From NCBI GenBank assembly GCA_001788395.1, contig MGBT01000190.1, positions 186-52,942 of the forward strand: DNA of 52,757 nt, written 5' to 3'. The notes under the pieces are model-generated. The model did not search any database. It saw only the letters and a list, made by a program, of their open reading frames with translations, and was not told the DNA's origin. This document shows positions 4,628 through 51,798 of the stretch, piece by piece. Source of the DNA: Candidatus Rokubacteria bacterium GWA2_70_23. Its GTDB lineage: Bacteria > Methylomirabilota > Methylomirabilia > Rokubacteriales > CSP1-6. Every line of letters starts with the position of its first letter. Within the stretch, counting starts at the first letter, position 1. Position numbers and translations under genes: made by a program.

Positions 4628-4761
4628 CTGAACCCCCTCCCCGCATGTCGCCGCGGGGGGTGCGTGCCGAAGGCAAGCCCTTGCCGGTTGAGCCAGGGTA
4701 GGCCGATTGTACTACCGACTGGCCTCTGCACGCTCCCCCGTCTGAGGGGGGCCGGCGGGGG

Positions 4762-5430
4762 TCACAGGCGGGAGCGGGACCCCCTGGGGGGCTCCACGAC
4801 CAGGGCCGGTGCGACGAGCGGCGGCCGTCGCCGGCGGCCGGCCAGGCGACGCGCCCGGTCCCAGAGCCTCACCCCGAGCAGCAGCACGAGTACCATCGCG
4901 TACCAGTAAGGATCCTGCACGCCCTTCTTGGCCAGCCACAGGTAGTGGAGCGCGGCCAGGACGCCGATCGCGTAGACCAGCGCGTGAAGCCGCCGCCACG
5001 CCCGCGCGCCGAGCCGCCTCACCATGCCCGCCGTCGAGGTGATGGCCAGCGGCACGAGCAGCGTGAGCGCCAGCATGCCGACCGTGATGTACGGCCGCTT
5101 CACGATGTCGGCCCCCATCGTGCCCCAGTCGAAGAAGTGGTCCAGCACGACCCAGACCGAGAAGTGGAGCGCCGCGCAGGCGAAAGCGAAGAGCCCGAGC
5201 AGTCGGCGCAGCGAGACAGGCCACGACCACCCGAAGAGGATCCTGAGCGGCGTCATGCCGAGGCTCGCCAACAAGAGCCTGAGCGTCCAGTCCCCCAGCG
5301 TGTTCGTGACGAAGCTGATGGGATTGGCCGTGAGGCTCCCCGCCCAGGCGCGCCAGAGGAGAAAGCCAAGCGGCCACAGGCCCACGGCCCAGACGCCGGT
5401 CTTCAGCGCGATCCGGGACCGCCGGCTCAC
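4762..5430 (-). CDS. msrQ: Protein-methionine-sulfoxide reductase heme-binding subunit MsrQ
   Basis: 3' part of ORF 4762..5982 from GTG 5430: LTANPI, GDWTLR, RRLLGLFAF..LHF, KRPYITVG, LAITS, WRRLHALVY, LHYLW. Directly downstream of msrP. Confidence 0.9.
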   Translation of the reverse strand: MSRRSRIALKTGVWAVGLWPLGFLLWRAWAGSLTANPISFVTNTLGDWTLRLLLASLGMTPLRILFGWSWPVSLRRLLGLFAFACAALHFSVWVVLDHFFDWGTMGADIVKRPYITVGMLALTLLVPLAITSTAGMVRRLGARAWRRLHALVYAIGVLAALHYLWLAKKGVQDPYWYAMVLVLLLGVRLWDRARRLAGRRRRPPLVAPALVVEPPRGSRSRL

Positions 5431-10457: not shown

Positions 10458-13163
10458 CTACAGGGGCTTGAGCAGCGCATCCTCGAGGGCCTCCCGGAGC
10501 CGGTCCATGGCGGCCGGCTCCTCGATGCGGTGCCCCTGCCGGTCGGCGATGTAGAAGGTGTCGTAGGCCTGGTCGATCTCCGTGGCGATGCGGGCGCTGC
10601 CGATGTCGAGCCCGAGCGCGGCGAAGGTGCGCGTGATGAGATAGAGGAGCCCCACGCGGTCCGGGCACTTGACCTCCACCACCGTGTGCGTGTCCGAGAG
10701 GTGGTTGTCCACCGCGATCTTGGGCGGCCCGGGCACGGTCTCCGCGCCGCGGCGCGCGGTGCGGCGCGCGGCCAGGAGATCCTCCACGGACTGCTCGCCT
10801 CGCAGCACGCGGTGGAGCGAGTCGAGCGTGCGGCGCCAGCGCGCGTCCTCCGTCACCGCCTCCCCGAACGGGTCGTTGACCTGGAAGGTGTCGATGGCGA
10901 TCCCGTCGGCCCGGGTGTGGATCTGCGCGGAGAGGATGTTGATCCCCTCGGAGGCGAGCGTGCCCGCGATGAGCGAGAAGAGCCCCGGGATGTCGCGCGT
11001 GGCGATGACGAACTCGGAGGAGCCGAGATCCGGGTAGTGGAACAGCTCGGTGGCCGCCACGGCCTCCTCGAGCCGCTCCACGAGTCGCAGATGCGCGGCG
11101 ATGCGCGGCGGCGAGGTGGTCACGAGGTACCGCTCCGACATCATGGCGAGATGAGCCACGACCGTGCGGCGCAGCCCCTCGCGCCCCAGCTCGTCCCAGA
11201 CGCGGCTGGCGATGGCCTCGCGGTTCGCCCGCTCGGGCCGCCCGCCGGTGAGGCGCGCCATGGTGCGGGCGAAGCACTCCCAGAGGATGCGTGCCTGCCA
11301 GCCCGTCATGACGCCCGGCCCCACCGCCCGCATGTCGGCGACGGTGAGCAGGTAGAGCATCCGCAGCCGCTCGGGCGTCTCCACCACCGCCGCCAGCGAG
11401 GCGATGGTCTTCGGGTCGTCGATGTCGCGGCGCTGCGCGATGTGGGACAGGGTCAGGTGGTGCGCCACGAGGAAGGTGACCGCCGCGGCGTCCTCGGGCG
11501 GCAACGCGATGCGCGCGGTCAACGCCTCGATCAGCGGGATCCCCTTGGCGACGTGCCCGTGGCCCTTCCCCTTGCCGATGTCGTGCAGCAGCATGCCCAG
11601 CATCAAGAGGTCGGGGCGCGCGACCTCGTTCAGCACCTCCGCCGTGCCCTCCGACTCGGCGGACTGCCCGGGCGCCAGCGCCTCCAGGTGCTCCACGGCC
11701 ACCAGCGAGTGCTGATCGGCCGTGAACTTGTGGTAGACGTCGTACTGCACGAGACACGTGAGCGCCCCCCACTCGGGCAGGTAGCGTCCCAGCAGTCCCA
11801 GCTCGTGCATCTCCCGGAGCGTCTGCGTGACCCGTCCCCAGTCGCGGCAGATGGCGCAGAACAGGTCCCGCACCTCGGGGGAGGCCTTCCAGCTCTCGTC
11901 CACGAGGTCCAGCGACTCCTCGAGGGCGCGCTCCACGTCGATCCCCAGCTCGGCGCCCAGCCGGTGCGAATGCCAGAACGCCTTCATGAGCCGGACGGGG
12001 TCCTCGCGGAACGCGCGGCCGTCGGGATCCACCAGATGCAGCCGGCCGTCGAGCACGAAGAGTCCGTCGGCCAGCGCCTCCTGCCGGAGCCGGCGCCCCA
12101 CCGGGCGGGGGCGCGACAGCGTCTCGCGGCAGCGCGCGATGAGCCGCCGCGACACGCGGTGGATCACCCGCGCGTGGAGATAGTAGTCGCGCATGAACTT
12201 CTCGACGCCGAGCGACACGTCGTCGCTCGCGTAGCCGAAGTTCTTGGCGATCTGCGGCTGCACGTCGCGCGAGAGCACGTCGTTCTTGTGGCCGGAGAGG
12301 AAGTGCAGCTCGTTGCGGACCCGCCAGAGGAAGCTGAGGGCCTCGTCGGCCGTGCGCTGCTCCCGGTCGGTGATGAGGCGCTTGTCCGCCAGCTCGCGCA
12401 GCGTGCGCGTGCCGAACTTGGTGGAGGCCAGCCACATGGCCGTGTGGATGTCGCGGAGTCCCCCGGCGGACTCCTTCACATTGGGCTCGCCCATGTACGG
12501 CGAGCCGCCGAACTTCCGGTAGCGCTGGTCGCGCTCGGCGAGCGTCGTCTCCAGGAACTGGGCGAAATCCTTCCGATAGACGTTCTCGGAGAGCACCTTC
12601 CGGAAGCGGGTGAAGAGCCGCCGGTCACCCACGAGGGAGCGCGCCTGCTGCATGGAGGTGCGGCTCGTGAAGTCGGTGCGCGCCATGGCGAGGCAGTCGG
12701 GGAGGCTCCGCACGGAGTGCCCGACCTGCAGCCCCAGGTCCCACAGCGTGTAGAGCAGCCCCTGGGTGGCGCGCTGGACCATGGGCCCCAGGTCTCCGTC
12801 GTAGATCACCATGAGGTCGAGGTCGGAGAGTGGGTGGAGCTCGCCCCGGCCGTAGCCACCGAGCGCCACGAGCACCATGGACACCGGAGGCGCGCCCTCT
12901 TTCTTCGCGTCCTCGACGGCCAGGCGGTAGAGCGTGGAGAGGAAGCCGTCCATGAAGGCCGCGTAGGCCTGGACGGACTGCTGGCCGGAGGCCCCGCCGA
13001 GGTGGGCCGCCCGGAGGAAGTCGACATTGGAGGTGAGGTGCTGGCGGAGGAGCTCGAGGCGAAGGCGCCGGCGGCGCTCGGCCCGCTCGGCCGGCGCGCC
13101 CTCGAGACCCTTCTCGGCCTGGGCCTCCACCCGACGCACCTGGCGAAAGAGCTCCCCCGGCAT
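10458..13163 (-). CDS. glnD: [Protein-PII] uridylyltransferase/uridylyl-removing enzyme
   Basis: ALGGYGRGEL..SDLDL, EPNVKESAGGLRD, HD domain (LLHDIGKG) and two ACT domains. Start 13163 is supported by a TTGACA-N18-TACCGT promoter. Confidence 0.95.
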   Translation of the reverse strand: MPGELFRQVRRVEAQAEKGLEGAPAERAERRRRLRLELLRQHLTSNVDFLRAAHLGGASGQQSVQAYAAFMDGFLSTLYRLAVEDAKKEGAPPVSMVLVALGGYGRGELHPLSDLDLMVIYDGDLGPMVQRATQGLLYTLWDLGLQVGHSVRSLPDCLAMARTDFTSRTSMQQARSLVGDRRLFTRFRKVLSENVYRKDFAQFLETTLAERDQRYRKFGGSPYMGEPNVKESAGGLRDIHTAMWLASTKFGTRTLRELADKRLITDREQRTADEALSFLWRVRNELHFLSGHKNDVLSRDVQPQIAKNFGYASDDVSLGVEKFMRDYYLHARVIHRVSRRLIARCRETLSRPRPVGRRLRQEALADGLFVLDGRLHLVDPDGRAFREDPVRLMKAFWHSHRLGAELGIDVERALEESLDLVDESWKASPEVRDLFCAICRDWGRVTQTLREMHELGLLGRYLPEWGALTCLVQYDVYHKFTADQHSLVAVEHLEALAPGQSAESEGTAEVLNEVARPDLLMLGMLLHDIGKGKGHGHVAKGIPLIEALTARIALPPEDAAAVTFLVAHHLTLSHIAQRRDIDDPKTIASLAAVVETPERLRMLYLLTVADMRAVGPGVMTGWQARILWECFARTMARLTGGRPERANREAIASRVWDELGREGLRRTVVAHLAMMSERYLVTTSPPRIAAHLRLVERLEEAVAATELFHYPDLGSSEFVIATRDIPGLFSLIAGTLASEGINILSAQIHTRADGIAIDTFQVNDPFGEAVTEDARWRRTLDSLHRVLRGEQSVEDLLAARRTARRGAETVPGPPKIAVDNHLSDTHTVVEVKCPDRVGLLYLITRTFAALGLDIGSARIATEIDQAYDTFYIADRQGHRIEEPAAMDRLREALEDALLKPL

Positions 13164-13169
13164 GGCGAA

Positions 13170-13199
13170 ACGGTACATGGCGCGGACCGAGGCTGTCAA
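13170..13199 (-). promoter_or_regulatory. Sigma70-type promoter of glnD (TTGACA-N18-TACCGT), leaderless spacing
   Basis: Consensus -35 at 13199-13194 and -10 at 13175-13170, 6 nt before the ATG. Confidence 0.6.
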
Positions 13200-13239
13200 A
13201 CGTGGCGCAGACGTGGACCCCCGGATACAATGGCTCCCC

Positions 13240-14334
13240 ATGCGACGGCTCTGGCGCGCGGTACTGGATCAGGTGACCCCGTACGAGGCGGGCCCATCGA
13301 TCGAGGAGCTCGAGCGGACGCTTGCCATCGACGGCCTCGTGCGGCTCTCCGCCAACGAGAGCCCGCTGGGCCCCGCTCCCACCGTCATCGAAGCGCTGCG
13401 TCGGGAGGCCCGGCGCGCCCACCTCTATCCTGACGGAGGCGCCACGGCCTTGCGGACGGCCCTGGCGCGGACGCTCCGCGTGCAGCCCGAGTGGCTGATC
13501 GCCGGCAACGGGGCCGACGAGATCGTGTCGTTCATCGCCCGCGCGGCGCTCGACCCGGGGGACGAGGTGCTGATCCCCCACCCGTCCTTCGAGCCCTACG
13601 CGACGGAGGCCATGCTCGGCGGCGGCGCCGTCGTGCGGAGCCCGCTGGCCGGCTACCGGACCGACCTCGACGACATGCGCCGCCGCGTCACGCCACGCAC
13701 GAAGGTCGTCTTCGTCTGCACGCCGCACAACCCGGCCTCGACCATCGTCCCGGCCGGCATGCTCCTGCGCTTCCTCGAGGGGCTCGGCGACGATGCGCCC
13801 ATCGTCGTGGTGGACGAAGCCTATCGCGACTTCTGCGACGACCCGGACACGCCCGATGGGGTGGCGCTCGCGCGTCGCTTCCCCACCGTGATCGCCATGC
13901 GGACCTTCTCGAAGATCGCGGGGCTCGCGGGGTTGCGGGTGGGCTACGCCGTCGCGCGGCCGGAGATCATCGACCGCCTGAACCGCGTGCGCGCCCCGTT
14001 CAACGTCAACCGCTTCGCTCAGGTGGCCGCCGTGGCCGCCCTGGACGACCGCACCCATCTCAAGCGGACGCGCTCGCTGATCCTCGCCGAGCGCCCGCGG
14101 CTCGCCGCCGCGCTCCAGGCGCGCGGCGCCGTGGTGCCGCCCTCGCAGGCCAACTTCCTGCTGGTCCGCGTGGGCGAGCAGGCGGGGCCGCTGCGCCAGG
14201 CGCTGATGAAGGCGGGCATCCTGGTGAGGGACGGGGCGGGCGTGGGCTTCCCGGGACACCTGCGCATCGCCATCGGGACGGCAGAGCAGAACAACCGCCT
14301 GCTCGAGGTCTGGACCCGCACGCTCGCCCGCTAG
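13240..14334 (+). CDS. hisC: Histidinol-phosphate aminotransferase
   Basis: LSANESPLG, YPDGG, GNGADE, PHNP, VDEAY and RTFSKIAGLAGLRVGY (PLP lysine). Confidence 0.93.
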   Translation: MRRLWRAVLDQVTPYEAGPSIEELERTLAIDGLVRLSANESPLGPAPTVIEALRREARRAHLYPDGGATALRTALARTLRVQPEWLIAGNGADEIVSFIARAALDPGDEVLIPHPSFEPYATEAMLGGGAVVRSPLAGYRTDLDDMRRRVTPRTKVVFVCTPHNPASTIVPAGMLLRFLEGLGDDAPIVVVDEAYRDFCDDPDTPDGVALARRFPTVIAMRTFSKIAGLAGLRVGYAVARPEIIDRLNRVRAPFNVNRFAQVAAVAALDDRTHLKRTRSLILAERPRLAAALQARGAVVPPSQANFLLVRVGEQAGPLRQALMKAGILVRDGAGVGFPGHLRIAIGTAEQNNRLLEVWTRTLAR

Positions 14335-14353
14335 AGTCTTTGAAGGACTCTAG
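14331..14353. repeat. 23-bp CTAG-bounded mini-palindrome CTAGAGTC-N7-GACTCTAG
   Basis: Perfect 8-bp inverted repeat joining the hisC stop CTAG to the CTAG of the adjacent element. Confidence 0.7.
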
Positions 14354-14562
14354 CAGCCTGCTGAAAAACTCGCAGGCTGCTCAAAAAGGTCCAGATGCGA
14401 GGCGGCGCCCGACGGCCGCACGCGAGGCGTACTCCGCTTGGCGAGCCGAGCCTGAGGCGAGGCGAGCGGATCCGGAGATCCGGGCGAGCGTGAGCGAGCC
14501 ACGTTGAGCGTGCGGCCGAGGGCGCCAACGAAGCAGATGGGCCTTTTTCAGCAGCCTGCTAG
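14350..14562 (+). mobile_element. MITE-like structured repeat, copy 1 (full length, CTAG at both ends)
   Basis: TIRs CTAGCAGCCTGCTGAAAAA / TTTTTCAGCAGCCTGCTAG (18/19 match). Near-identical copies at 41937-42132 and 51587-51798. Confidence 0.8.
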
Positions 14563-14942
14563 CGGCGCTTGGTCGTGGTGCCGTTGCGCGCGGAGGGCTT
14601 CGTGGCCGCGGGCTTCGCGGTGGCGGCCCTGCCCTTCGGCGCCTGCACCGCGGCGAGCCGGGAGAGCGCGTCCTCCCGCTCGGCGCGCAGCGTCTTGACC
14701 TGCTGCTCGAGAAGCGTCACGCGCTGGTCGGCCTGGGCCGACTTCGACCGCAGCATCTCGGCCTCCGCGTACACGTCCTTCAGCTCGGCCCGGAGCCGCT
14801 GCGTCTCCGTGCGGCTCTCCGCCCACTTGCCCCAGAGCACGGCCACGAGCACCGCGAGCACGAGTGCCGCAGCGATCAGGAACCACGGGCGCCGCGGCCG
14901 GATGAGATCCGAGCCGCGCCCGTCCACCTCCGTCATCTCCAT
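14559..14942 (-). CDS. Hypothetical membrane-anchored coiled-coil protein
   Basis: SD GGAGGAG before ATG 14942, one TM helix, then a heptad-like charged helix. Confidence 0.7.
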   Translation of the reverse strand: MEMTEVDGRGSDLIRPRRPWFLIAAALVLAVLVAVLWGKWAESRTETQRLRAELKDVYAEAEMLRSKSAQADQRVTLLEQQVKTLRAEREDALSRLAAVQAPKGRAATAKPAATKPSARNGTTTKRR

Positions 14943-15024
14943 CGACTCTCCTCCGCGCAGTATCATGGGGCGAGTCTAGCACCCGCCGCCGCCGGGCCGC
15001 GAGGAGTTTGGTACGATACGCGCG

Positions 15025-40140: not shown

Positions 40141-41940
40141 ATGCCGCAGCGTCCTGACATCCGAAACGTCGCCATCATCGCCCACGTGGACCACGGCAAG
40201 ACCACGCTGGTGGACGCCATGCTGTGGCAGTCCGGCATCTTCCGCGCCAACGAGCACGTGGCCGAACGGGTCATGGACTCCATCGACCTCGAGCGCGAGA
40301 AGGGCATCACGATCATGGCGAAGAACACGTCCGTCCACTACCGCGACGTGAAGATCAACATCGTGGACACGCCAGGCCACGCCGACTTCGGCGGCGAGGT
40401 GGAGCGAACGCTGACCCTGGTGGACGGCGTGCTGCTCCTCGTGGACGCCGCCGAGGGACCGCTGCCCCAGACGCGCTTCGTGCTCAAGAAGGCGCTGGAG
40501 GCCGGGCTCCCCCCGATTGTCGTCATCAACAAGATCGACCGCCAGGACGCCCGCGCGGCGCAGGTGCTCGACGAGGTGTACGACCTCTTCATCGACCTGG
40601 ACGCCTCCGAGGACCAGCTGGACTTCCCCGTCCTCTACACGGATGCGCGGAAAGGCGCCGCCACCACGGACCTGCAGGAGGAGGGGAAGACCCTCGCCCC
40701 CCTCTTCGACACGCTCCTGGCCCATATCCCACCGCCGCGCTTCGAGGAGCACCATGGGCTCCAGCTCCGCGCCGCCTCGCTCGACTGGGACGACTACGTG
40801 GGCCGGCTCATCATCGGCCGGATCGTCAACGGCCGCATCCGCCAGTACGATCGGGTGGCCGTCGTCCACCGGGACGGCAGCGTGGAGCATTCCAAGGTCA
40901 CCGTGCTCTACGGCTACGAGGGGCTGAAGCGCGTGGAGGTCGCCGAGGCCTGGGCCGGCGACCTGGTCGCCGTGGCGGGCATCGAGGCCATCGAGATCGG
41001 GGAGACCATCGCGGACGCCGAGACGCCGCTGGCCCTGCCGGTGATGCACATCGACGAGCCCACCGTGTCCATGCTCTTCTCCGCCAACGTCTCGCCCTTC
41101 GCGGGGCGCGAGGGGCGCTTCGTCACCTCGACCCAGCTCCGCGACCGGCTCTGGAAGGAGCGGCGGACCAACGTGGCCATCCACGTCGACGAGACCGACT
41201 CGCCGGACACGTTCCGCCTCTCCGGCCGAGGCGAGCTCCAGCTGGCCATCATCATCGAGACGATGCGGCGCGAAGGCTTCGAGATGGAGGTGGGCAAGCC
41301 CCAGATCATCACCCGGGAGGAGCACGGGCAGACGCTCGAGCCCATGGAGTCCCTGGTGGTGGACATCCCCGAGGAGTTCATCGGCGCCGTCACCCAGAAG
41401 CTCGGCCCCCGGAAGGGCCAGATGACCAAGATGGTGAACCACGGCACCGGCCGCGTGCGCCTCGAGTACCGCATCCCCTCGCGCGGGCTCATCGGCTACC
41501 GCACCGAGTTCCTCACCGACACGCGGGGCACCGGACTCCTGAACCACCTCTTCGACGGCTACGCCCCCTGGCAGGGGGACATCCCCCACCGCGGGAACGG
41601 CGCCATGGTGTCCGACCGCGCCGGCCGGACCACCGCCTACGCCATCGACCATCTCCAGCCGCGCGGCGTCCTGTTCCTCGCGCCGGGCGAGCCGGTCTAC
41701 GAAGGCCAGGTCGTCGGCGAGAACGCCCGCGACAACGACCTCGACGTGAACATCACCAAGGAAAAGAAGCTCACCAACATGCGCGCGTCCACCTCGGACG
41801 AGGCCGCGCGGCTCACGCCGCCGCAGCTGATGAGCCTCGAGCAGTCCCTCGAGTGGATCCGCGAGGACGAGCTGCTCGAGGTCACGCCGAAGTCGCTCCG
41901 CCTCCGCAAGAAGCACCTCAGCGGCCGCCGCCGCTTCTAG
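40141..41940 (+). CDS. typA: Translational GTPase TypA/BipA
   Basis: [38 protein letters not shown] and [11 protein letters not shown]. Confidence 0.97.
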
Positions 41941-42132
41941 CCGGGCCGCTGAAACAGGCCCATCTGCGGAGGTACGGCGCCCTCGGCCGCACGCTCAACG
42001 TGGCTCGCTCACGCTCGCCCGGACCGCCGGATCCGCTCGCCTCGCCTCCGGCTCGGCTCGCCAAGCGGAGTACGCCTCGCGTGCGGCCGTCGGGCGCCGC
42101 CTTGCATCTGGACCTTTTGGGGCGGCCTGGAG
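41937..42132 (-). mobile_element. MITE-like structured repeat, copy 3 (diverged ends, outer left TIR missing)
   Basis: Core is near-identical to the reverse complement of 14372-14562. Begins at the CTAG containing the typA stop. Confidence 0.75.
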
Positions 42133-49634: not shown

Positions 49635-49720
49635 TGGTGCGAGAGGGGGGAGTTGAACCCCCACGGGGATGCCCCTCTGGATCCTAAGTCCAGCGCGTCT
49701 GCCAGTTCCGCCACTCTCGC
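49635..49720 (-). tRNA. tRNA-Leu (TAG)
   Basis: GCGAGAG acceptor stem, anticodon arm CTGGA-CTTAGGA-TCCAG, long variable arm, GTTCAA T-loop, encoded CCA. Upstream of tig. Confidence 0.95.
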
Positions 49721-50417: not shown

Positions 50418-51587
50418 TCACCCCCTCGTCCAGAAGAGCAGCAGGCCCACGGCCGCGGCGCCGGCGATGAGCACGGGCTCGGGAATCTTGAAGCGCCAGC
50501 TGAGTCCAAGCGCTACGAGCCCGATCAGGAGCGTCGGGACGTCCACGATGGCCCGGCGGGCGAGGACGAAGCAGGCCCCGGCGATGGCGCCCGCGGCAGC
50601 GGCCGTCACCCCGCCCACGAAGGCCTTGACCTGCGGGTTGCCGCTCACGCGGTCGAACCACGGGAAGGGGATCACGACGAAGAGATAGACCGGCAGGAAG
50701 ACCCCGATCGCTGCCAGCAGCGCGCCCGCCTGCCCCGCCACGAGGTAGCCGATGAAGGCCACGGTGATCACCACGGGCCCCGGCGTGATCATGGCCACCG
50801 CCACGGCGTCCAGGAACTGCTTGTCGTTGACCCAGCCATGCTCCTGGACGACGCCGCCATAGAGGAAGGGGACGATGGCGAGCCCGCTGCCGAAGACGAA
50901 GGCGCCCGCCTTGGCGAAGAAGCCGAGGATCGTGCCGAGCGTGGCCAGCGAGGCGGGCTCGCGCAGGCCCTGGATCAGGAAGAGCGGCAGCGGCCCCACC
51001 GACCAGAGCGCCGCCCGCGCTCCCATCAGCCGGCGCAGCCAGGCCGGGGGCGCCTGGACGAGCAGCGCCACGACGCCGCACATGACGAAGAGCGTCGCGA
51101 TCTCGGACTCGGTCCACGCGGTGACGACGGCCATCACGAAGAAGATGGCCCAGAGCAGCCGGTCCCGGCTCATGGTGAGCCGCGCCAGCCGGTACGCGGC
51201 GCGCACGATGATCGCGATGACGGCGGCGCCCACGCCGAGGAAGGCCGCCTGCATCCACGAGAGCCCCCCGTAGCGCACGTAGAGCATGCCGATAGCGACC
51301 GTCATCACGTAGGAGGGCAGGATGAAGACGAGGCTGACCAGGGTGGCGCCCCAGACCTTGGAATGGATGTAGCCGAGGCAGATGGCGAGCTGGGCGGCCA
51401 GCGGCCCCGGGGCCAGCTGGGAGAGCGCCAGCGCCTTCTTGTACTCCTCCAGGGTGAACCACTTCCGCTGCTCCACCAGGTCCCGCTGCATGTAGCCCAC
51501 GAGGGCCACGGGCCCGCCGAAGCCGAGGGCGCCGAGATAGAGGAAGTACCGGAGGAGCTCGGATAGACTGGGCACGGGGGTCACCAC
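50418..51587 (-). CDS. chrA: Long-chain chromate transporter (CHR family)
   Basis: GFGGP, SQLAPGP, FGSG and MITPGP, in two homologous halves. Confidence 0.92.
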   Translation of the reverse strand: MVTPVPSLSELLRYFLYLGALGFGGPVALVGYMQRDLVEQRKWFTLEEYKKALALSQLAPGPLAAQLAICLGYIHSKVWGATLVSLVFILPSYVMTVAIGMLYVRYGGLSWMQAAFLGVGAAVIAIIVRAAYRLARLTMSRDRLLWAIFFVMAVVTAWTESEIATLFVMCGVVALLVQAPPAWLRRLMGARAALWSVGPLPLFLIQGLREPASLATLGTILGFFAKAGAFVFGSGLAIVPFLYGGVVQEHGWVNDKQFLDAVAVAMITPGPVVITVAFIGYLVAGQAGALLAAIGVFLPVYLFVVIPFPWFDRVSGNPQVKAFVGGVTAAAAGAIAGACFVLARRAIVDVPTLLIGLVALGLSWRFKIPEPVLIAGAAAVGLLLFWTRG

Positions 51588-51798
51588 TAGCAGTCTGCTG
51601 AAAAAGGCCCATCTGCTTCGTTGGCGCCCTCAGCCGAACGCTCAACGTGGCTCGCTTGCGCTCGCCGGATCTCCGGATATGCTCGCCTCGCCTCCGGCTC
51701 AGCTCGCCAAGCGGAGTACGCCTCGCGTGCGGCCGTCGGGCGCCGCCTCGCATCTGGACCTTTTTGAGCAGCCTGCGGGTTTTTCGGCAATCTGCGAG
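51587..51798 (-). mobile_element. MITE-like structured repeat, copy 2 (full length, inverted relative to copy 1)
   Basis: CTAGCAGTCTGCTGAAAAAGG...TTTTTCGGCAATCTGCGAG, colinear with the reverse complement of 14350-14562. Confidence 0.8.

Follow-up and report, generated by a model that had tools for sequence, protein, structure and literature searches.

In the available parts of the sources, repeats of the ERIC/IRU, Correia (NEMIS) and RUP families are described as non-coding elements of <250 bp that have terminal inverted repeats (TIRs), carry TA at their ends, lie beside genes and are transcribed into hairpins that affect neighboring mRNAs (PMC2229807, PMC3733652). As far as the same texts extend, RUP is tied to the insertion sequence (IS) family IS630 by the likeness of its TIRs and by its TA target (PMC2229807, PMC3733652). 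The REP/REPIN repeats, in the portions available, are hairpins with compensatory changes and G-T pairs that are found downstream of genes and in the gaps of convergent or tandem gene pairs, and the GTAG-24 REP family of Pseudomonas aeruginosa has an unpaired GA in its stem (PMC3116915, PMC3733652). Here we analyzed a 52,757-nt stretch of Candidatus Rokubacteria bacterium GWA2_70_23 (contig MGBT01000190.1, positions 186 to 52,942; hereafter the window), which contains three copies of a palindromic, non-coding repeat of 125–215 nt that have a mean column identity of 87% when aligned. On balance, this repeat is probably a non-autonomous, palindromic miniature transposon similar to MITEs (miniature transposable elements with inverted repeats) and widespread in Methylomirabilota/Rokubacteria, in which the fold of one strand, bearing tandem G.A mismatches, has been selected, most likely as RNA.

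The repeat is similar to ERIC, Correia and RUP in its size, TIRs, TA ends and gene-adjacent position, a likeness drawn by description and not by sequence. Those families are A+T-rich and, in the available parts of the sources, tandem G.A pairs on one strand are not reported for them, whereas the present family has ~70% G+C. It also differs from them in being conserved across much of its phylum, in lying on TAG stop codons, in carrying nested cargo hairpins and in having no IS partner that we could find. Like REP/REPIN, it forms long hairpins with conserved ends and a spacer of free sequence, and it has compensatory changes and G-T pairs. REPs are, however, units of 20–40 nt that are marked at one end, beyond the stem, by GTAG (or CGTC) and are linked to RAYT, whereas the present repeat has CTAG on both sides, a unit of 125–215 nt, true TIRs and no RAYT found in the window's own genome. 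Unlike the palindromes derived from IS200/IS605, which have no TIRs and a strong replication-strand bias, it has TIRs and a weak bias (30 vs. 44 and 31 vs. 33 in two genomes). The likeness to IS630/Tc1-mariner consists of a TA target within CTAG and a TIR style of TA-(G)CAG-N6-8-AAAAA, and the end sequence of Tc1 presumably resembles that of the repeat. The difference from IS630 is that no examined IS copy has the repeat's termini and several repeat-rich genomes are without DDE_3. By this comparison, the repeat has the anatomy of a palindromic MITE that targets TA, as ERIC, Correia and RUP do, and its hairpins follow the logic of REPINs. New are the lineage, the conservation across much of the phylum, the stop-codon placement, the nested cargo, the complete confinement of tandem G.A pairs to one strand and the antisense placement.

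Repeat boundaries were set by an alignment of 48 long copies with their flanks, all of which came from the window's own genome (G000), a draft of 4.66 Mb in 243 contigs with 70% G+C. Copy 1 extends over window positions 14350–14562, from one CTAG to another, a span that takes in an additional repeat of the terminus on the 5′ side. The initial annotation had placed it at 14372–14558, where the sequence reads as it described. The G-A strand is defined as the strand bearing the GA/GA mismatches, which is the + strand at copy 1. The parts of copy 1 and the other two copies in the window are as follows.

14350–14353, no strand: 5′ flanking CTAG, the target, of which TA is probably duplicated.
14354–14369, + strand: outer 5′ repeat, in which the terminus CAGCCTGCTGAAAAAC is present once more in direct orientation and is also able to pair with the 3′ end.
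14373–14407, + strand: conserved 5′ terminus of 35 nt, with an A5 tract, a T pairing with G, and CCA-GA-TGC.
14408–14434, + strand: variable central stem, 5′ arm, with ACGC-GA-GGCGTAC.
14435–14500, + strand: 66-nt cargo module of three hairpins.
14440–14467, + strand: cargo hairpin H1, with two GA/GA loops.
14468–14481, + strand: cargo hairpin H2.
14483–14500, + strand: cargo hairpin H3, with a GA/GA loop and a GTGA loop.
14501–14523, + strand: variable central stem, 3′ arm, with ACGTT-GA-GCGTGCGGCCG...
14524–14558, + strand: conserved 3′ terminus of 35 nt, with GCA-GA-TGG, a T5 tract and CAGCAGCCTG.
14559–14562, no strand: 3′ flanking CTAG, whose CTA is the TAG stop of a converging open reading frame (ORF) at 14559–14966 (− strand).
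41937–42129, − strand: second long copy, which has no outer repeat and lies with its 3′ end directly against the TAG stop (41938–41940) of a + strand ORF.
51587–51798, − strand: third long copy, with a GCAA loop; missing at the orthologous site of the sister genome G001.

The outer 26 nt of both ends match in inverted orientation except at three conserved places. The 5′ terminus is nearly invariant among 47 diverse copies, while the arms of the central stem vary in sequence by sub-family and retain their pairing. Three alleles of the 3′ linker were found (AACGAA, AACGCC and GTACCTCC), each of which, by inspection, pairs in its own register with 5′ GC(G/A)AGGCGG. The outer 5′ repeat, which is followed by a spacer of 3–14 nt, is present in 53 of the 70 G000 copies and in most of the 36 intergenic copies of G061, a complete 5.65-Mb genome of another family with 39 copies in 40 loci, 36 of them placed. 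In most copies CTAG precedes this outer repeat (C at −4 in 45/50, T at −3 in 42/50, A at −2 in 41/50 and G at −1 in 48/50).

The 70 two-ended copies that a pattern search identified in G000 comprise 29 short (~125 nt) and 37 long (~185 nt) copies and 4 of other lengths, two of which are tandem composites. The repeat has these features of a MITE: a length of 125–215 nt, no coding capacity, many copies, TIRs and presence/absence polymorphism. Copy 3 of the window is absent from the orthologous G001 site, the flanks of which are 98% identical, and at least 8 sites that are filled in G001 or G002 are empty in G000; empty sites have one (C)TAG and filled sites two. The earlier suggestion that the element is unlike a simple MITE is therefore contradicted by its imperfect 26-nt TIRs, its CTAG/TA flanks, its empty sites in sister genomes and its lack of coding capacity. 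CTAG is 12-fold under-represented in G000 (1027 sites vs. ~12,750 expected); thus, its occurrence directly 3′ of the element in 47 of the 70 copies is not due to chance. CTAG flanks both sides in 33 of the 93 copies with both flanks readable. Given that only 4 of the remaining 60 have the same tetranucleotide on both sides, a target duplication of TA would fit better than one of 4 bp. Insertion would take place at the TA within CTAG. In a genome of 70% G+C, CTAG sites would lie mostly at TAG stop codons, which would put the copies directly against gene ends. The TA/CTAG target and the TIR style suggest that the element may be moved in trans, the enzyme being a DDE transposase of the IS630/Tc1 type.

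A small palindrome, CTAGAGTC-TTTGAAG-GACTCTAG, is located at window positions 14331–14353, between the TAG stop of the ORF at 13027–14334 and the element, and half-matches to it are found at two empty sites (on contigs C60 and C123). It was rejected as an excision footprint, as AGTC was not among the 40 commonest 7-mers after CTAG in G000.

With RNA parameters, the + strand of positions 14350–14565 folds at −134.2 kcal/mol, compared to an average of −94.7 for shuffled sequences (z −8.79; none of 200 folds as well), and the complement at −118.6 kcal/mol (z −6.24). Under DNA parameters there is little difference between the strands, at −70.9 for the + strand and −67.9 for the complement. The strand asymmetry is 15.6 kcal/mol in the former case vs. 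3 kcal/mol in the latter. Covariation was assessed with an RNAalifold consensus of 47 short copies that are <95% mutually identical and come from many metagenome-assembled genomes (MAGs). Changes on both sides were found at 18 of the 35 predicted pairs, and 96.9% of cells are paired, compared to 89.3% in shuffles and 31–46% with slid partners; 0 of 500 shuffles reach the observed value in any of five pairing measures. The central stem is wholly different between sub-families and still pairs, and the ends are nearly invariant.

The outer stem elements proposed in the initial annotation are present as described: CCA-GA-TGC faces GCA-GA-TGG with GA at 14394–14395 and 14536–14537, and ACGC-GA-GGCGT faces ACGTT-GA-GCGT with GA at 14424–14425 and 14506–14507. 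Of the three inner arms that it drew, the two GA hairpins (H1 and H3) are each 95.2% paired across 21 distinct copies. The CGGATC/GATCCG arm between them is weak (58.1% paired), and the minimum-energy fold is drawn otherwise, with an alternative helix that is 72.2% paired; the pair counts thus speak for the inner arms as drawn in the initial annotation. Two of the structure-preserving differences between copies that it listed are also real, although perhaps with the copy numbers swapped: GTGA becomes GCAA at 51587–51798, and GGCTGC/GCAGCC becomes GGCCGC/GCGGCC at 41937–42129. The loop variants in the aligned long copies, GTGA, GCAA and GTAA, all fit GNRA. A kink-turn was considered and rejected, as it needs a three-nucleotide bulge beside tandem G.A/A.G pairs and the GA/GA elements here are symmetric 2 × 2 loops.

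Strand polarity was measured in 63 representatives that are <88% identical, selected out of 216 oriented unique copies. Among the predicted 2 × 2 loops on the G-A strand, GA/GA is by far the commonest kind, with 118 examples. On the complement there are 0, the same places being TC/TC, as the initial annotation had noted. The G-A strand also has more G.U pairs (223 vs. 153) and is the more stable strand in 56 of the 63 representatives. The 118 loops span 53 sequence contexts, and at least one is found in 52 of the 63 copies. Their closing pairs are A-GA-U on both sides (46), C-GA-G opposite C-GA-G (31), C-GA-G opposite U-GA-G (23) and G-GA-G with C-GA-C (13). In addition, a U.G pair at columns 18–121 is conserved in 38 of the 47 short copies, and the apical stem exchanges G-C, G-U and A-U. 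The GA columns vary at 0.021 in the long forms (n = 70) and 0.000 in the short forms (n = 43), compared to 0.064 and 0.044 for paired columns, 0.070 and 0.075 for other unpaired columns and 0.049 and 0.209 for hairpin-loop columns, a comparison with some ascertainment bias in that some GA sites lie inside the search patterns. The GA columns of the inner module lie outside every search pattern, and among 22 copies no variation was found in those of H3 and of the outer loop of H1. Thus, the pairs covary and the GA columns are at least as conserved as the paired columns. Given this conservation, the covariation and the GA polarity, the single-stranded fold of one strand looks selected, as the initial annotation had claimed; the lack of covariation and of special GA conservation that it had named as contrary evidence was not observed.

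C-GA-G contexts favor sheared G.A pairs, according to nearest-neighbor and NMR work. The repeat is in this respect similar to the RNA duplex GGCGAGCC and to CGAG-rich DNA with sheared tandem G.A pairs: 54 of the 118 loops have C-GA-G on the 5′ side, opposite C-GA-G (31) or U-GA-G (23), and these contexts suggest that the G.A pairs of the repeat may be sheared. Sheared G.A pairs in CGAG-rich DNA are on record in the available part of the source (PMC10085684).

If no single-stranded form had a function, the left and right ends would have inherited their differences at the asymmetric positions, to be read by a duplex-binding transposase, or biased mutation or repair in a palindrome would have produced them, and the hairpin would be a by-product of inverted repeats and a GCGAG-rich, low-complexity module. 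The commonest GA/GA loop (44 of 118) does lie within the conserved ends, where protein contacts are expected, and direct repeats of the GCGAG type should, from their sequence, self-pair via GA/GA automatically. A genome-wide scan for small GA hairpins, which was swamped by coding sequence and dropped, revealed no general excess over TC (367 vs. 348). This explanation is, however, difficult to match with GA/GA in 53 contexts, including sub-family-specific stems of unrelated sequence, that are always on the same strand. The flanking pairs flip (GGC-GA-GC to CC-GA-GC) and the GA stays, a change from a Watson-Crick pair of an inverted repeat to GA/GA needs two transversions in one arm, and G.U pairs and compensatory changes favor the same strand. 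We therefore consider a purely double-stranded role quite improbable.

That the selected fold acts as RNA rather than DNA is rather likely, single-stranded DNA and neither form being much less likely and equally so. The RNA reading is favored because the asymmetry appears under RNA but not DNA energies, the loops vary within GNRA, the orientation bias is linked to genes and not to replication, and the ends are DDE-like. It is held no more firmly because the orientation data conflict with it. The folded G-A strand could instead be a single-stranded DNA substrate for transposition in the style of REP/REPIN-RAYT, IS200/IS605 or IS91, with an HUH enzyme recognizing the hairpins and G.A pairs. Such a substrate would be consistent with the strict strand polarity of the mismatches, with cargo modules that lie in one orientation on the G-A strand, with junctions that are exact on one side only and with the IS605 and IS91-like HUH genes of G000. 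According to the available part of the source, REPs with an unpaired GA in the stem are known, and cleavage by RAYT depends on imperfect pairing (PMC3733652). Nevertheless, the repeat has true TIRs with TA/CTAG on both sides, and its strands fold almost equally under DNA parameters. The only Y1 gene of G000 is an IS605 tnpA with unrelated ends, and G042 and G043 carry the repeat and gave no Y1 match. The replication bias is also weak: in G061, the G-A strand is on the G-rich leading strand 30 times and on the other strand 44 times (p 0.13), with GC skew sampled at 40 places and switching near 1.2 and 4.1 Mb, and the split relative to local GC skew is 31:33 in G000, a weak test in a draft genome. 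We regard a single-stranded DNA substrate as unlikely. As a separate observation, dnaA in the single contig of G061 (C1:3484276–3484758) is ~0.6 Mb from the nearer GC-skew switch.

The placement of copies relative to genes is strongly non-random. We counted a stop as lying at the 3′ end if a converging stop was ≤4 nt from the element's 3′ end, and at the 5′ end if a co-directional stop was at its outermost 5′ end. In G000, 61 of 66 placed copies are intergenic, and the terminus motif directly follows 102 of the 1316 TAG-ending genes in our own gene calls. Stop codons are found at the 3′ end vs. the 5′ end in 30 vs. 9 cases in G000 (p 0.001) and 24 vs. 3 in G061 (p 5e-5). The 3′-side neighbor converges on the element in 44 cases vs. 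17 in which it does not in G000 (p 0.0007), and in 30 vs. 6 in G061. Between tandem genes, the complement vs. the G-A strand is in the mRNA sense 19 vs. 9 times in G000 and 23 vs. 6 times in G061 (p 0.002). The check on orientation that had been recommended for the repeat thus yielded a strong bias relative to genes, in the sense opposite to that of a 3′ untranslated region RNA made of the G-A strand, and a weak one relative to replication. A5 and T5 tracts bracket the hairpin on both strands. The element may act as a two-way hairpin or terminator-like block at gene 3′ ends, in which the transcript of the abutting gene would carry the weaker complement hairpin and the stronger hairpin of the G-A strand would face transcription arriving from outside towards the gene's end.

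The same orientation would be explained if the element carried its own small RNA gene, in which a promoter located within the outer 5′ repeat or next to it drives transcription of the G-A strand as far as the T5 tract; convergent placement at gene ends would also follow. The G-A strand does have a hairpin followed by T5, both ends are conserved phylum-wide, and repeat sequences are abundant in metatranscriptome libraries, in the contigs of which the summed depth is 170–1240 on the repeat vs. 0–4 on its flanks. Set against these points, no promoter-like site was found at copy 1, the outer repeat is missing in 17 of 70 copies, there is no conservation of sequence on the 5′ side of the element, and the RNA-library signal is strandless and matched by a DNA run. 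A small RNA gene of this design is therefore doubtful.

Searches for a partner enzyme covered several transposase families. No RAYT was found in G000, where the sole PF01797/Y1 gene is the tnpA of an IS605 that also has an adjacent tnpB and whose hairpin ends are unrelated; repeat-bearing G042 and G043 gave no Y1 match. The search for a co-occurring HUH or RAYT partner that had been proposed was thus negative in these genomes, and among DDE genes no IS630 element was found to match the repeat's ends. Of the 251 genomes of the phylum, 92 have DDE_3 genes, with IS630-type copies that are flanked by TA/CTAG, and one IS630 element (locus L313) has TIRs of a similar style, TA-GTGCAGTGTCCCAAAAATTC. 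A partner on the IS630 route would be an element bounded by TA-GCAGGCTGCTGAAAAAGG. No pairs of termini 450–5000 nt apart, as expected for an autonomous element, were found in 238 loci or in G000, and searches with DDE_Tnp_1_2 and DDE_Tnp_1 identified no transposase with repeat termini nearby. The multi-copy proteins of G000 comprise an IS91-like Y2 and integrase protein, IS110, rve and two without a convincing family; repeat termini were not found near its IS91-like, IS110 and rve genes.

Some of these mobile elements were noted in their own right. The IS605-type element of G000 (C7:13150–14880; locus L092) has a 138-aa TnpA, a 401-aa TnpB-like ORF and hairpin ends of the GGCTTCAG type, and a diverged second copy of tnpB is on C84. 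A multi-copy protein of 567 aa (G000:C52:5737–7440, C4 and C77) combines a phage-integrase domain with IS91 zinc-binding and Y2 transposase domains. In locus L281 (G083:C25), an IS630-like element at 859–1975 with 29-nt TIRs is inserted exactly at the CTA after the repeat's 3′ end; therefore, the repeats create fresh CTAG targets for other TA-targeting elements.

Several of our results weigh against a TA-targeting miniature transposon whose G-A strand is selected as RNA. In pairs of filled and empty sites, one junction is exact and the other has 5–25 nt differing, with wider flanks 98–99% identical, which simple cut-and-paste does not predict. DDE_3 is absent from repeat-bearing G000, G006, G041–G044, G052 and G065, one DDE_3-free genome has 111 motif matches in only six contigs, and all 29 IS630 loci examined have other TIRs, no transposase with matching ends being found among them. 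In roughly three quarters of cases or more, the gene that the element abuts has the G-A strand as its antisense strand, and for this reason the RNA that is likeliest to be made is the strand without the G.A and G.U pairs. The orientation counts are themselves weakened by our calling genes with a heuristic of our own based on GC3. A promoter/terminator scan of copy 1, under a rule that counted loops of 3–8 nt and ≤20 pairs, scored nothing. Finally, a DNA run had the same kind of repeat excess as the RNA-library contigs, which reveal neither strand nor ends.

The long form corresponds to the short form plus the 66-nt module at 14435–14500, which replaces ~5 loop nucleotides. This module is present or absent between sister genomes at two sites (L064/C35 and L081/C39), and reads in DNA and RNA libraries contain joints that skip 65–69 nt, from 14431–14435 to 14501. 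Outside the repeat framework, it has 34 matches in G000, alone, in tandem or in another CTAG-ended family. It is possible, but again improbable, that a new kind of structured mobile element operates through its G-A strand, as an RNA (or single-stranded DNA) that is borne by a transposon and has stacked tandem G.A platforms and a conserved purine-rich internal loop for recognition by a dedicated protein, and into which cargo cassettes are inserted strand-specifically, with no duplication and with a few nucleotides rewritten at one junction.

Related modules and arrays were also noticed elsewhere. The second CTAG-ended family (...CGTGGGTGTACGT...GGGCCGGCACTAG) carries a variant of the 66-nt module at G000:C240:7890–8010, C57:14040–14160 and ~10 similar places, where the module is bracketed on both sides by (A/G)TGG, with a change on one side matched on the other. 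A different cargo module (CCGCCGTTCGAG...GCGAGACGAG...GATCCGC) is found at four loci of other MAGs (L100, L133, L151 and L158), in either arm and always in the same strand orientation. Other lineages have AT-richer inserts of the CGCATTCCGCAAT type. At L072 (G002:C267), a tandem array of a ~45-nt hairpin unit (GCTCGCCTCGCCGTGAGGCACGGCTCAGCTCGCC...) lies ~30–230 nt upstream of the element and is absent at the orthologous G000 site.

The exact 20-nt motif of the 5′ end has at least 113 matching stretches and, among the matches listed, is found almost only in MAGs labeled Rokubacteria, Rokuibacteriota, Methylomirabilota or NC10. Allowing ≤1 mismatch, it is present in 140 of the 251 genomes of the phylum, compared to ≤1 match per genome for a reversed control. 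By family, these include 114 of 158 genomes of the window's own family and 19 of 21 of a second family, with 0 of 15, 0 of 6 and 0 of 20 in three families of small genomes. The motif and DDE_3 tallies include genomes flagged as unpublished (G242; G078, G119, G088 and G012), and no single claim depends on those. In the viral collection, only one contig has the motif, the 138-kb L375 (IMGVR_UViG_3300019487_000004) at 4759–4778, which could represent a prophage or else bacterial sequence that was misfiled. Rfam 15 gave no gathering-score match for the repeat and, at E up to 10, only two chance-level hits (E 1.6–1.7). Our literature searches, supplements aside, found no description of the repeat family in this phylum and no matching CTAG/stop-codon MITE. 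By far the densest load is in G083, with 572 motif matches in a 3.8-Mb, 85%-complete genome. The window also contains a tRNA gene at 49638–49720 (− strand; Rfam RF00005, 58.1 bits).

Palindromic repeats such as REP, ERIC and Correia have been known for decades, and whether they act as DNA or RNA remains unsettled. The family found here has a built-in strand marker: all of its non-Watson-Crick features favor one strand, and in two distant genomes that strand is non-randomly placed at gene ends. In each genome of a major uncultured lineage of soil and groundwater, it marks ~100 TAG stop codons, which is relevant to the annotation of gene ends and also to assembly, given that the copies break contigs. 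The element could also be used as a marker of the lineage.

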